DNA of 25,692 nt from an uncultured Candidatus Saccharibacteria bacterium (GCA_964425505.1 CAYRME010000001.1:1-25692); one strand, 5' to 3'. Positions 20,207 to 23,929 are shown, counted from the first letter of the stretch. Made by a program: numbers and translations. The notes: generated by a model not told the origin, from the letters alone.

Positions 20207-20234
20207 TTGACACTCTTCGGGTGATTGCTAGAAT
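20207..20234 (+). promoter_or_regulatory. Strong sigma70-type promoter for pilin 1
   Basis: TTGACA-16 nt-TAGAAT with extended -10 TGn. Confidence 0.72.
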
Positions 20235-20290
20235 GCAAGGCAAGGAGTTATGCATAAAAGGTCGTTTAAGCAAAGTTTAAAATAAAAAGT

Positions 20291-20701
20291 ATGTTACAAA
20301 AGATAAAGAAAGGCGGTTTCACCCTCATTGAGCTACTTGTCGTTATCGCCATCATCGCTATTCTCGCTACACTCGTTCTCGTAGCATTAGAAGGAGCTCA
20401 AGATCAGGCGGAGGATGCCGATAAACAGGGAGCGATATCTCAAATCAGATCCTTGGCGCAATTGGAGTATTCGGAAGAAGGAAATTATTCCGGCATTGAG
20501 GATCGTGATGAGTTTCCCGAAGACGAAATACACGGTGATGAGGTCCAGGTACTTGTAGATGATACCGACTCCGACTATTTCGTGGCTTATATAGAGAACT
20601 CCGAAGGCAATTATTTCTGTACGGATGATAGTCTGGATGTAGGTGAGGTTGATAATGCACCTGACGATGGAGCCGAAGAATGCCCCACTTTCATGGACTA
20701 A
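20291..20701 (+). CDS. Type IV prepilin 1 (probable major pilin)
   Basis: Basic leader, G|[17 protein letters not shown] cleavage/methylation motif with Glu5, C-terminal Cys pair. Confidence 0.93.
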   Translation: MLQKIKKGGFTLIELLVVIAIIAILATLVLVALEGAQDQAEDADKQGAISQIRSLAQLEYSEEGNYSGIEDRDEFPEDEIHGDEVQVLVDDTDSDYFVAYIENSEGNYFCTDDSLDVGEVDNAPDDGAEECPTFMD

Positions 20702-20724
20702 AAGCAAGCGACCAAAGTGATCAC

Positions 20725-20764
20725 AAAAAGAGCGGCTCTTTTATTTGAGGGGCCGCTCTTTCTC
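20725..20764 (+). terminator. Intrinsic terminator after pilin 1 (second copy at 21287-21326)
   Basis: aaagagcggctctt...ggggccgctcttt stem with G-U pairs and a T-rich tail. Confidence 0.75.
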
Positions 20765-20792
20765 TTGATGGAAAAGTAAAACTTGTTATACT
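20765..20792 (+). promoter_or_regulatory. Promoter for pilin 2 (second copy at 21327-21354 for pilin 3)
   Basis: TTGATG-16 nt-TATACT with extended -10 TGn, directly after the terminator. Confidence 0.62.
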
Positions 20793-20852
20793 AGAGAAAG
20801 TAAGAATAAGGTCAAAGAATACAAAGGTCGTATAAAATAAAACAAGAAGTAT

Positions 20853-21263
20853 ATGTTACAAAAAATAAAGAAAGGCGGTTTCACCCTCATTGAGCTACTT
20901 GTCGTTATCGCCATCATCGCTATTCTCGCTACACTCGTTCTCGTAGCATTAGAAGGAGCTCAAGATCAGGCGGAGGATGCCGATAAACAGGGAGCGATAT
21001 CTCAAATCAGATCCTTGGCGCAATTGGAGTATTCGGAAGAAGGAAATTATTCCGGCATTGAGGATCGTGATGAGTTTCCCGAAGACGAAATACACGGTGA
21101 TGAGGTCCAGGTACTTGTAGATGATACCGACTCCGACTATTTCGTGGCTTATATAGAGAACTCCGAAGGCAATTATTTCTGTACGGATGATAGTCTGGAT
21201 GTAGGTGAGGTTGATAATGCACCTGACGATGGAGCCGAAGAATGCCCCACTTTCATGGACTAA
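20853..21263 (+). CDS. Type IV prepilin 2, protein identical to prepilin 1
   Basis: Identical translation. Confidence 0.93.
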   Translation: MLQKIKKGGFTLIELLVVIAIIAILATLVLVALEGAQDQAEDADKQGAISQIRSLAQLEYSEEGNYSGIEDRDEFPEDEIHGDEVQVLVDDTDSDYFVAYIENSEGNYFCTDDSLDVGEVDNAPDDGAEECPTFMD

Positions 21264-21415
21264 AAGCAAGCGACCAAAGTGATCACAAAAAGAGCGGCTC
21301 TTTTATTTGAGGGGCCGCTCTTTCTCTTGATGGAAAAGTAAAACTTGTTATACTAGAGAAAGTAAGAATAAGGTCAAAGAATACAAAGGTCGTATAAGCT
21401 TTAAAAAAGAAACAT

Positions 21416-21844
21416 ATGTTACAAAAGATAAAGAAAGGCGGTTTCACCCTTATCGAGCTACTTGTGGTGATCGCCATCATCGCTATTCTTGCTACACTCG
21501 TTCTCGTAGCCCTCGAGGGAGCACAAGATCAGGCAAGAGACGCTGACAGACAAGGGGCAATAGCTCAAGTAAGAACCCTTGCTGAACTTGAAGCGGTACA
21601 ACATGAAGAAGGGCATTATGATGATCTTGCAGGTGCGGTAGGTGAGGAAGTTACCGATGAAGAAGGAGAAGTAAGAGGTAGCGAGCTTCACGTGGAAGGA
21701 AGTGGAGAGAATTTCATTGCTTTCATAGAGAATTCCGAAGGCGACTATTTCTGCACGGATGAGACTTACAGCGTAGAAGATGTTGACTCGGAAGACCTTG
21801 ACCCGACTAACTTTGGTGCCGATGACAATTGTGTAGTAGAATAG
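21416..21844 (+). CDS. Type IV prepilin 3
   Basis: Same first 40 aa as prepilin 1, divergent head, [12 protein letters not shown] motif. Confidence 0.92.
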
Positions 21845-21863
21845 TTAAAATTCAAAGAAAGAG

Positions 21864-21893
21864 ACAAAAGCTCCCCTTCGGGGGAGTTTTTGT
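21864..21893 (+). terminator. Intrinsic terminator with cUUCGg tetraloop
   Basis: acaaaagctcccc-ttcg-ggggagtttttgt. Confidence 0.85.
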
Positions 21894-21922
21894 TTATTTT
21901 CAAAATATTCTATAATAAAGCA

Positions 21923-22330
21923 ATGACCAACAAGAATGGTTTTACATTAATTGAGTTACTTGTTGTTATCGCCATTATTGCTATTTTGGCTACACTCGTT
22001 CTTGTTGCGCTTGGCGGAGCGGGAGATCTGGCGGAAGATACCGACAGAAAAAGGGCCGTGTCGCAAATAAGATCCCTTTCGGAGATCTATTATACCGCGG
22101 ATGGGCATTATGAGAATTTGGAGGATGCCGAAGAGCTTGAAGAGGTGTTCGATAAATACGGAAAGGGAGATGAAGAAGAAGATCTTCTTGTCTTGGAAAC
22201 GGAAGAAGAAAGGTATTGTGCCGAAATAGAACTCACGGGCGATGATTATTTTTGTATTGATCATACTCTGAGGGAGAGAGAGGATCACACGGAGAGAGTT
22301 TGCAGTGAAGAGAATGTTGATTGTGACTAA
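21923..22330 (+). CDS. Type IV prepilin 4
   Basis: MTNKNG|FTLIELL, four Cys in the head; ATG at 21923 preferred over the ORF-track start at 21890, which lies in the terminator. Confidence 0.9.
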   Translation: MTNKNGFTLIELLVVIAIIAILATLVLVALGGAGDLAEDTDRKRAVSQIRSLSEIYYTADGHYENLEDAEELEEVFDKYGKGDEEEDLLVLETEEERYCAEIELTGDDYFCIDHTLREREDHTERVCSEENVDCD

Positions 22331-22348
22331 GAAAAATCGTTTTATTTT

Positions 22349-22822
22349 ATGAGAAAAATAAAAAAGAAGGACGGCTTTACGTTGCCCCGCAACGTGACCA
22401 CTAAAAGTGGTTTTACGTTGATCGAGCTACTTGTCGTTATCGCCATCATCGCTATCCTTGCCACGCTCGTTCTCGTCGCCCTCGAGGGAGCGCAAGGACA
22501 AGCAAGAGATGCGGACAGAGAGGGCGCTCTCTCACAAGTGAGAAATTATGCTCAGCTTTACTATACAAAAGAGAGAACTTATGATGGGCTTGATGAAGAG
22601 GGTAGCGAATTGCATAACATGGAAGATAGGGATATATTTTCTTCAAGATATTTTGACGAAGAGGTGGTGCCCTTTAGAGTTGAGACTGAAGAAGATGAGT
22701 TTTGTGCCCACATTCATCTTGAAGTTGAGGAAAAATATGTATGTGTGGACAATGATCTGGAGCTCAAAAGAGGTGATACATGTGAGGACCTCACAGAAGG
22801 AGCGAGATGTGTAGAAAATTAA
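22349..22822 (+). CDS. Type IV prepilin 5 with duplicated GFTL leader
   Basis: KKDGFTLPRNVTTKSG|FTLIELL, four Cys. Confidence 0.9.
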   Translation: MRKIKKKDGFTLPRNVTTKSGFTLIELLVVIAIIAILATLVLVALEGAQGQARDADREGALSQVRNYAQLYYTKERTYDGLDEEGSELHNMEDRDIFSSRYFDEEVVPFRVETEEDEFCAHIHLEVEEKYVCVDNDLELKRGDTCEDLTEGARCVEN

Positions 22823-22830
22823 TTGTTTTT

Positions 22831-23328
22831 ATGAAAATAATTTCCGAAAAAAGGAATAAGGGTCTTACCATCATGGAGCTCATGGTAGTTCTTGTTATTA
22901 TTGCGGTCTTGACTTCTGTGATACTTGTTTCTTTTAATATGGCGAGGGAGAGAACGAGGGATGAAGTAATAAAGAGCGAGCTTGAGCAATTAATGGGAAT
23001 TGCCGAAACTGCCTATCATCCCGAATTGCAATATGAAGAACTTTATAAAATGAGAGAAGATGATCATGAGAATATAGTTACAATAAGGAATAGGATTGAG
23101 GATGATATGGGGCAAGACTTCAATTTTAATTTTCCCGAGGACTCAGTAGATTTTGATGGCTTTGATCAATATTGTGCGTATGTACGTCTTGTTTTTGAAG
23201 ATGAAAAGATGTTTTGCATAGATTACAGAGGGGTAGCTACTGCAAAGGAAGTTCCGAGAGGGGCAACCGAGTTAAATTGCCAAGAAAGAGATAGTAAATA
23301 TGCCGACTGTGACCGTATAGAAGAATAA
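22831..23328 (+). CDS. Type IV prepilin 6 (minor)
   Basis: RNKG|LTIMELMVVLVII, YCAY...FCID motif; ATG at 22831. Confidence 0.88.
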   Translation: MKIISEKRNKGLTIMELMVVLVIIAVLTSVILVSFNMARERTRDEVIKSELEQLMGIAETAYHPELQYEELYKMREDDHENIVTIRNRIEDDMGQDFNFNFPEDSVDFDGFDQYCAYVRLVFEDEKMFCIDYRGVATAKEVPRGATELNCQERDSKYADCDRIEE

Positions 23329-23338
23329 GTTGTGGTTA

Positions 23339-23367
23339 TTGCATTGTTTCAAAATTTTTTATATTAT
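23339..23367 (+). promoter_or_regulatory. Possible internal promoter for prepilin 7-pilD
   Basis: TTGCAT-17 nt-TATTAT in an AT-rich gap. Confidence 0.45.
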
Positions 23368-23404
23368 AAAGTAAGATAATTATTATTAGTCTAAAAAAAG
23401 ATTC

Positions 23405-23929
23405 ATGATACAGGAAAAAGAAAAAGGTGTTACTCTAATAGAACTTCTTACTGTTATCGTTATCATTGGTATCTTGGCTACCGTGGTACTTGTTTCTTTG
23501 GATTATGCAAGGGAAAGTGCCAGAGATTCCACTATTGAGCAACAAATGCATCAACTAAGAAATGTTGCCGAGGCCGCTTATACTTTTGAAGATGGATATG
23601 AAAGGCTGAATACTCTAATGGAAAGTTATGAGGAGGATGGGGAAGATAATGAATACGGAATGATAAAAAATCAGATAGAAGATGTTGCCGCCGAAGAGGT
23701 TTTGGACGATGAAAAGAAGGTAGATGTCGATGAAGCTTTTGAATTAAGGGTGAACGAAGGAGATAATTACAGTGAATATTGCGCTTACGCCTATCTTGTA
23801 ACGCATACCGATGAGGTTCATTGCATAGATTCTGCGGGAAACGCCGAGAGGATGGATACGGAAGAAGAAGCTGGTGTTAAGTGTGTAGAGGGTGTTGACT
23901 ATGTATGTGAGATAGAAGAAGGTTTCTAG
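23405..23929 (+). CDS. Type IV prepilin 7 (minor)
   Basis: KEKG|VTLIELLTVIVII, YCAY...HCID motif. Confidence 0.88.
   Translation: MIQEKEKGVTLIELLTVIVIIGILATVVLVSLDYARESARDSTIEQQMHQLRNVAEAAYTFEDGYERLNTLMESYEEDGEDNEYGMIKNQIEDVAAEEVLDDEKKVDVDEAFELRVNEGDNYSEYCAYAYLVTHTDEVHCIDSAGNAERMDTEEEAGVKCVEGVDYVCEIEEGF

Follow-up and report, generated by a model that had tools for sequence, protein, structure and literature searches.

We analyzed a 25,692-nucleotide (nt) stretch of DNA, here called the window (GCA_964425505.1, CAYRME010000001.1:1-25692), in which positions 20207-23929 had been predicted from the sequence alone to hold an array of seven type IV pilin genes with an invariant helix and variable heads. 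The seven open reading frames, which we call p1 to p7 and which all lie on the plus strand, each match the Pfam family N_methyl (PF07963) with about 24-36.3 bits against a cut-off of 21.2, so the predicted number of pilin genes held. Each product has the leader junction G-F/L/V-T-L/I-x-E, the first hyphen marking the cleavage point. Type IVa pilin leaders are short and basic, with Gly at -1, a hydrophobic residue at +1, and Glu at +5, followed by ~20 hydrophobic residues, and we found this arrangement in all seven proteins (...KGG-FTLIELL..., ...KG-LTIMELM..., and ...KG-VTLIELL...). The genes are encoded together with a prepilin peptidase and assembly machinery (PilB, PilC, PilM/N/O, and PilT); judged by sequence, all seven are genuine type IV prepilin genes, located between pilC and pilD. 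The public sequencing runs that contain the stretch are all soda-lake metagenomes. We consider it probable that the host is an uncultured, ultrasmall soda-lake bacterium of the Paceibacteria type, belonging to the Candidate Phyla Radiation (CPR), and that the block is the pilin part of a type IVa pilus locus.

The pilins and their cassettes

The first gene, p1 (20291-20701), encodes a small major-type type IVa pilin of 136 amino acids (aa) with two cysteines and an isoelectric point (pI) of 4.05. The p2 gene (20853-21263, 136 aa) encodes a protein identical to p1, and p3 (21416-21844, 142 aa, two cysteines) is a sister of p1 and of p2', an alternative occupant of the second position that is described below. 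They are followed by p4 (21923-22330, 135 aa), an older small paralog with the same helix; p5 (22349-22822, 157 aa, or 146 aa if counted from a TTG at 22382), again with the same helix; p6 (22831-23328, 165 aa); and p7 (23405-23929, 174 aa), which has a larger head. The number of cysteines from p1 to p7 is 2, 2, 2, 4, 4, 4, and 4, and a strand with the pattern aromatic-C-x-D is common to all seven, both as originally described. The invariant helix is a property of p1 to p5, in which the 24 residues of the mature helix are identical, and not of p6 (LTIMELMVVLVIIAVL...) or p7 (VTLIELLTVIVIIGILA), whose helices differ. We note that in the p5 leader (22349-22420) the GFTL motif is doubled through a 36-nt in-frame insertion, with Glu-5 after the second copy only; this sequence is unchanged in sister assemblies, in which the gene call begins at the TTG at 22382.

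An AlphaFold2 model of p1, based on a 39-sequence alignment, has a predicted local distance difference test score (pLDDT) of 89.4 and takes the form of a lollipop, with helix α1 at residues 12-63, four strands, and a C-terminal tail. In a Foldseek search, its best match in the Protein Data Bank (PDB) was the major pilin PilA4 of Thermus thermophilus (6xxd_A; TM-score 0.64/0.68, probability 1.0), and it also matched PilE of Neisseria gonorrhoeae (5vxx/1ay2). Cys-110 and Cys-131 are conserved, and p1 is predicted to have the type IV pilin fold, with α1 lying on a four-stranded antiparallel sheet and a C-terminal cysteine pair. The predicted structure of p7 (pLDDT 86.7) has six strands and two helices more than p1. 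Its Foldseek matches, to the Neisseria minor pilins PilX and PilV, were non-significant (E about 0.3), and we classify p7 no further than as a conserved larger pilin. The pilins are very acidic throughout 20291-25692 (pI 4.05-4.57, 22-27% Asp plus Glu, and Lys plus Arg down to 4%), in contrast to the non-pilin proteins PilT (pI 5.7), PilC (6.2), PilD (9.0), and RecG (9.2); related pilins of other habitats have 5-10% Asp plus Glu. We take this acidity to be a probable adaptation to soda-lake brine in proteins that are exposed to it.

The prediction that the first three pilin genes are each served by a promoter and a terminator was borne out by sequence matches. Promoter-like sites, all with a TG extension, lie at 20207-20234 (TTGACA-16-TAGAAT, 11/12 matching positions), 20765-20792 (TTGATG-16-TATACT, 9/12), and 21327-21354 (TTGATG-16-TATACT, 9/12). 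A terminator hairpin with a 15-base pair (bp) stem follows p1 (20727-20761; -25.9 kcal/mol, z -3.43); a hairpin of the same sequence follows p2 (21289-21323; -25.9 kcal/mol, z -3.4), and a strong intrinsic terminator with a 15-bp stem and a U-run follows p3 (21862-21895; -23.7 kcal/mol, z -5.85). Further, the 5' untranslated region (UTR) of each monocistronic cassette contains the motif AAAGGTCG(T/C), 22-30 nt before the ATG (20257-20265, 20823-20831, and 21385-21393), and no Shine-Dalgarno sequence was found nearer the start in the pilin cassettes. The motif is kept upstream of the first two pilins in five related species (L082, L083, L086, L087, and L088) and may be a translational or regulatory element specific to highly expressed pilin genes. 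Because the first two small pilins of these same relatives each carry a TTGACA-type promoter, the UTR motif, and a terminator, the design of stand-alone cassettes is ancestral to the clade and has been enlarged in the lineage of the window. In one of the relatives, L083, a gene for an IS200-type Y1 transposase lies inside the pilin array (10924-11694), between the second small pilin and the p6 ortholog.

The genes downstream of the p3 terminator are arranged differently. A perfect TATAAT box (21911-21916) lies just after this terminator and 6 nt before the p4 ATG; it is likely the promoter of a p4-p5-p6(-p7-pilD) operon, and the p4 transcript is possibly leaderless. The equivalent gene of the relatives has a TATAAT 7-12 nt (L083, L087, and L088) or about 25 nt (L082) before its ATG. 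As the gap between p4 and p5 is 18 nt and the longest p6 frame (ATG at 22807) overlaps the end of p5, p4 to p6 can be read as an operon, which probably includes p7 and pilD.

Duplication, gene conversion, and the contents of slot 2

Sequence comparison revealed that p1 and p2 belong to a 546-bp direct duplicate. Positions 20290-20835 (copy A, comprising the p1 coding sequence, its terminator, and the promoter/5' UTR module of the next gene) recur at 20852-21397 (copy B, hereafter slot 2) with one mismatch, G at 20302 against A at 20864. The original prediction of synonymous divergence beneath a constant helix and of differing heads therefore fails for this pair, which encodes one protein, and stands for the more distant ones: in the helix codons, the synonymous divergence (pS) is 0.37 between p1 and p3 and 0.56-0.59 between p1 and p4/p5, with a nonsynonymous divergence (pN) of 0.04-0.08 in the latter comparison, and in the heads p1 and p4/p5 have a pN of 0.40-0.45. 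Synonymous sites are saturated in the heads, for which no dN/dS is estimated. The same helix is kept across species even where the DNA of their PilC genes is no more than about 70% identical. These comparisons point to purifying selection on the helix, and, because the helix is kept across species, we read its invariance as a filament-core constraint as well as a product of gene conversion.

Gene conversion, for its part, appears to act on the 5' halves of the genes. The pS between p1 and p2' is 0.14 for residues 1-25, 0.03 for residues 26-52, and 0.74 from residue 53 onward, leaping at about codon 52, and a maximum χ2 test placed a single breakpoint 174 nt after the ATG (χ2 = 82), a value that none of 2000 permutations attained. 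Slots 2 and 3 have 92-nt promoter/UTR modules with 100% identity, and the 3' ends that precede them are unlike. Adjacent small pilins in relatives have a helix pS of 0.07-0.19 versus a head pS of 0.5-0.7. Recombination through the conserved 5' ends, which had been suggested as a route for swapping heads, is supported by these results and by a chimeric gene described below.

To place the genes, we used a tree of the pilins of the window and of six related arrays (L081-L083 and L086-L089). In this tree, p1, p2', and p3 form a lineage-specific clade (support 98/93), p4 and p5 belong to the small-pilin clade as its older members, and each relative whose array extends far enough has one-to-one orthologs of p6 and p7 (support 100/99 and 98/96, respectively). 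Together with the duplicated unit, which carries a terminator and the next promoter, the p1/p2'/p3 clade supports the proposal that the array grew by duplication of cassettes. The number of small pilins per array is 2 in L083, L086, and L087, 3 in L082, and 5 in the window. We counted how many similar-helix small pilins follow pilC in a row in 60 Paceibacteria loci that continue for at least 5 kb beyond this gene; the run was 0 in 5 loci, 1 in 35, 2 in 14, and 3 in 6, and never 4 or more; by this count, the five same-helix small pilins of the window are unusually many. The original proposal of interchangeable major pilins is not supported in that form for all seven: p6 and p7 are one-to-one orthologs with different helices, p7 has the larger head, and both probably share the pilD operon with p4 and p5. 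On sequence grounds, the seven genes are not equivalent, and we distinguish monocistronic "major-type" cassettes (p1, p2, and p3), older paralogs (p4 and p5), and conserved accessory pilins (p6 and p7).

The contents of slot 2 were compared across four assemblies of one near-clonal soda-lake population, namely the window, L081 (GCA_019594605.1), L090 (ENA ERZ27266004), and L091 (ENA ERZ27266011). L081 is 100% identical to the window over 20206-25600 except that slot 2 holds p2', a 152-aa pilin that a protein search found to be 70% identical to p1; the 156 differing columns all fall within about 20906-21400, and the head part of copy B that is replaced is about 20906-21315. L090, an 18.3-kb contig contiguous from pilT, also reads p1-p2'-p3, with 100% identity upstream and one difference downstream. 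L091, a k141 contig, matches the window at 100% from pilB as far as slot 2, where the slot-2-specific UTR (that of slot 3 being GCTTTAAAAAAG) and a p1-type helix are joined to the p3 head, with the crossover inside a 20-nt identity, GCTACACTCGTTCTCGTAGC, and a junction at which ...TATTCTCGCTACACTCGTTCTCGTAGC is followed by CCTCGAGG. Three states of slot 2 thus stand in an otherwise invariant background: a p1 copy (window), p2' (L081 and L090), and a p1-helix::p3-head chimera (L091). The differences between p1 and p2' lie in the αβ-loop, the β1-β2 loop, and the C-terminal tail, and the β2-β3 core (AYIxNSEGNYFCTDDSLD) is conserved; these loops and the tail are the exposed parts of type IV pili. 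The original prediction had named an array fixed across strains as the result that would speak against it. As the four assemblies differ only in slot 2, and one of them has the chimera, the array is not fixed, with the proviso that misassembly is possible. A hint of independent support for variation in pilin heads comes from a second soda-lake Paceibacteria species, of which two contigs (L088 and L089) have 99.15% identity along 8.8 kb. A single 100-nt stretch of the first pilin head (L088 8200-8300, in the αβ-loop region) accounts for about half of their differences, with 36 differing columns that include a 27-nt indel, and both contigs end inside the pilin array.

We next consider whether the slot-2 forms are real or whether the array is fixed as p1-p2'-p3-p4-p5-p6-p7, in which case the p1 duplicate of the window and the L091 chimera would be mis-threading artifacts and only old conversion would be real. 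Several observations count in favor of a fixed array. Two independent assemblies have p2' in slot 2, one of them contiguous from pilT, and contigs break in or beside the array (at 20206, where L081 starts, and in slot 2, where L091 ends about 100 nt past the chimeric junction). Between the paralogs, exact identity extends over 57 nt (20865-20921), and the promoter module that they have in common measures 82-92 nt; these lengths exceed typical small k values, so a de Bruijn assembler could mis-thread slot 2. Set against this, L091 was built with k = 141, and its 141-mers connect the slot-2-specific UTR to p1-type helix single-nucleotide polymorphisms (SNPs), as in the window; the 20-nt identity that holds its crossover is too short to mislead a large-k graph.

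Evidence from sequencing runs came from Logan contigs (k = 31) of six runs, X1 to X6, of which X1, X2, and X3, to judge by contigs of equal length (1026, 1033, and 973 nt), are probably SRR9330141, SRR9330143, and SRR13089369. The depths of these contigs are rough, and the p2' form was traced indirectly, from where contigs ended loosely, joined, or broke along the window sequence. Loose ends or replacements specific to p2' were seen in X2, X3, X4, and X5 (for example, CCGGATAATGAGGATGCCGAGC before 21147, a 117-letter replacement of 21215-21312, and AGTGACCTT before 21312), and the contigs of these four runs break exactly where the p1 and p2' paths merge. No p2'-specific piece was present in the Logan contigs of X1 and X6. 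In X1, a 180-nt 3' contig (21218-21397) is unbroken, and the p1 head has a depth of 10.4-12.5 compared with 6.3-7.9 for the single-copy flanks (1.4-1.9x), whereas the ratio is about 1x in both X2 (10.4-14.2 versus 13.2-15.6) and X3 (10.5-11.6 versus 8.1-9.6). Further, junction contigs of both slot 2 and slot 3 are present in X1, and, because the p2' 3' end is absent in this run, these can only follow the p1 3' end. The helix SNP haplotypes also vary between runs: in X2 all the helix SNPs are of the p2' type (20927T/20930C/20933G/20980T), at 2x depth, and its p1 therefore carries them too; X1 and X3 have both haplotypes, and in X3 the two heads branch at 21027 instead of 21019. Taken as a whole, these differences speak for genuine recombination at slot 2. 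A three-unit model (p1, p1, and p2') for X1 was dropped, as p2' head pieces are absent there.

Some results weigh against real differences in slot 2 or against the meaning that we attach to them. The X1 depths are internally inconsistent, with helix arms of 16.7 and 6.7 adding up to 23.4 compared with 12.5 for the head, and X1 also has an unexplained 31-nt contig gap at 21187-21217. Further, one pilin could dominate while the rest are minor, and Paceibacteria commonly have tandem pilins with homogenized 5' ends, which makes a special mechanism unnecessary. Overall, we regard it as probable that the slot-2 forms are a real recombinational polymorphism, which the contig depths suggest to vary from sample to sample, and we place the same confidence in the explanation developed below as a whole (locus identity, cassette anatomy, and recombination taken jointly). 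A fixed array with assembly artifacts in slot 2 seems to us rather unlikely.

A model for the array and its surroundings

The explanation that we prefer begins with PilD, which would cleave all the pilins after the glycine that precedes Phe, Leu, or Val. The identical N-terminal part of α1 (α1-N) in p1 to p5 would be maintained by its two tasks, making up the core of the filament and docking on the assembly platform; with the same core helix, any of p1 to p5 could enter the same filament, polymerized by one platform, and present a different αβ-loop, β1-β2 loop, and C-terminal tail. The three monocistronic cassettes (p1, slot 2, and p3), which encode small, very acidic major-type pilins, would probably supply the bulk subunits, and the second part of the system would be a probable operon of p4, p5, p6, p7, pilD, and the core minor pilins. 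If several cassettes are expressed, as we infer, their pilins would co-assemble or alternate, and the cassette pilins may build a mosaic filament in the manner of PilE1/PilE2 of Streptococcus sanguinis or alternative filaments in the manner of PilA4/PilA5 of Thermus.

The array itself would evolve by birth and death of whole cassettes together with gene conversion. The near-identical promoter, UTR, leader, and helix modules that flank each head would be the substrate for recombination, and RecA-type unequal crossover and conversion between these modules would alter both the head content and the dosage. Recombination thus probably reshuffles the pilus surface, and by analogy with the saccharibacterium TM7x (PMC11623550) the resulting variation would serve host attachment, or else escape from pilus-binding phages. 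It is possible, although doubtful, that a near-clonal population duplicates, replaces, and fuses promoter-bearing cassettes on ecological time scales, with neither silent loci nor a dedicated recombinase. Equally tentative is the corollary that samples hold different slot-2 states that are presumably selected by host surfaces or pilus-binding phages.

Another explanation is that p1 is the one true major pilin and that each of the others, whether minor or accessory, has a fixed, non-interchangeable role (priming, tip adhesion, or DNA binding, for example), for which the shared helix allows entry into the same filament at low copy. The p1 promoter has the strongest match of the three, p6 and p7 are conserved orthologs with distinct heads, and cultivated Saccharibacteria have one highly expressed major pilin per pilus system (PMC11623550). 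We nevertheless consider this explanation improbable: p2 (or p2') and p3 are built as major-pilin genes, being monocistronic and each having a promoter and a terminator to itself; p1 has no closer paralogs than these, and they share its small head; two such cassettes are conserved in relatives; and a core minor-pilin set already sits after pilD. Programmed antigenic variation as in Neisseria pilE/pilS, where donor segments are copied into one expression site by dedicated machinery, would fit the mosaic 5'/3' divergence of p1 and p2' and the replacement of the slot-2 head, but is barely credible, as the window contains no silent, promoterless, or 5'-truncated donor cassettes (none of the copies is shortened, and each has a start codon, leader, helix, and promoter-like site), no G-quadruplex-forming element (G3+N1-7 x4) on either strand, and no recombinase or invertase near the array. 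An invertible or shufflon-type switch was rejected as well, there being no recombinase nearby.

Among the organelles by which CPR bacteria may contact their hosts, type IV pili have the best support. From most habitats these bacteria cannot as yet be cultured, and the locus offers a concrete case of pilus surface diversity in this group. If the preferred explanation is true, it would represent natural turnover of a pilin repertoire in CPR bacteria, with the set of heads changed even within a population that is otherwise identical in sequence. Pilus variation arises by conversion from silent cassettes in Neisseria and through a fixed heteropolymer of two pilins in S. sanguinis, and the locus would then add a third route. 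Should the slot-2 differences be artifacts of assembly, what is left is an ordinary Paceibacteria pilin array of large size.

The genes around the array are those of a single type IV pilus machinery, and the locus is complete. By Pfam matches, the locus runs pilMNO-pilB-pilT-pilC, the seven prepilin genes, pilD, and further pilin-like genes, all on the plus strand, and the window holds one pilB/pilC/pilD set. Upstream lie pilM (11969-13024; PilM_2), a pilN-like gene (13038-13616), pilO (13609-14193; PilO), pilB (14472-17633; T2SSE and MshEN), which encodes 1053 aa with four N-terminal MshEN domains, pilT (17663-18742; T2SSE), and pilC (18749-19957; T2SSF). Downstream lie pilD (23937-24740), whose product is a prepilin peptidase with A24_N_bact and Peptidase_A24 matches, and two core minor-pilin-like genes with N_methyl matches, p8 (24740-25291), which falls in the conserved post-pilD minor-pilin clade that is kept in relatives, and p9 (25294 to the window end at 25692). 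A four-MshEN PilB (1041-1056 aa) also occurs in the relatives L082, L086, and L087, and a 12-nt tandem repeat (GACAATGACGAT x2.5) is found at 19976-20005, immediately 3' of the pilC stop. A second, unrelated pilin array lies near the other end of the window: three tandem paralogs on the plus strand (1572-1958, 1963-2367, and 2450-2890) resemble VirB2/TrbC-like pilins of type IV secretion systems (T4SS; Pfam T4SS_pilin, PF18895, E 8e-14 to 9e-9), just 3' of a gyrA C-terminal fragment (3-788) and a SAM methyltransferase gene (1118-1618). An array of this kind has been described for the T4SS of Patescibacteria (PMC12102498).

Comparison with known pilus systems

Related loci were collected by a PilC search of 185,579 species representatives, which returned 80 loci that we use as a class-wide set only. 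The closest PilC was 43% identical, and the window hence has no close relative among these representatives. All 80 loci come from metagenome-assembled genomes of Patescibacteria, mostly labeled Paceibacteria, Parcubacteria, or "Saccharibacteria". When metagenome contigs were searched with p3, the matches were confined to the N-terminal helix. As in the window, the small pilins of tandem arrays in other Patescibacteria, two to four in number, lie directly after pilC, with near-identical helices and homogenized 5' coding DNA, and minor pilins come next. The window differs in having the largest run (five compared with at most three in the 60 loci counted), in its extreme acidity, and in the allelic slot states seen within a near-clonal population. 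Its layout is an enlarged form of a pattern common in the group; what is new is the size of the same-helix set, the modular anatomy of the cassettes, and the alternative slot states in a near-clonal population.

TM7x has two type IV pilus systems, T4P-1 and T4P-2, with which it binds its host and twitches; their loci are separate, and each system has a single major pilin (PMC11623550). Both TM7x and the window have CPR type IV pili with small lollipop major pilins, but the window has one locus with many major-type paralogs. In the case of Neisseria pilE/pilS, the likeness lies in a conserved 5' part and a variable 3' head that are recombined by gene conversion, and the mosaic pS and the differing slot-2 contents are what non-reciprocal head transfer would leave, as seen in assembled contigs only. 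The copies in the window are complete with promoters, unlike those of Neisseria, and their variation is a population polymorphism rather than measured high-frequency switching.

In Thermus thermophilus, PilA4 and PilA5 form two different pili from one machinery (PMC7203116; PDB 6xxd). PilA4 is the best structural match of p1, a PilB with multiple N-terminal MshEN/GSPII domains is common to both systems, and the models of p1 (a small four-strand head) and p7 (six strands and two further helices) suggest that the window likewise encodes structurally distinct pilins for a single machinery. The Thermus pilins, however, are not tandem same-helix paralogs, and no recombination between them has been described. 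In S. sanguinis, two tandem major pilins, PilE1 and PilE2, co-assemble stochastically and give a mosaic pilus surface (PMC10628169 and PMC6497953). Both loci are of the monoderm type, with adjacent major-pilin genes that have an identical α1-N (in the window, p1 to p5, where a heteropolymeric pilus calls for at least two) and differ in exposed head loops, and the separate promoters and terminators of p1, p2, and p3 are consistent with comparable expression of the paralogs. The window departs from S. sanguinis in having five same-helix paralogs (six with p2') instead of two, the first three of which are promoter-terminator cassettes, in heads that are far more diverged (pN 0.2-0.45), and in the evidence for replacement of cassettes within a population.

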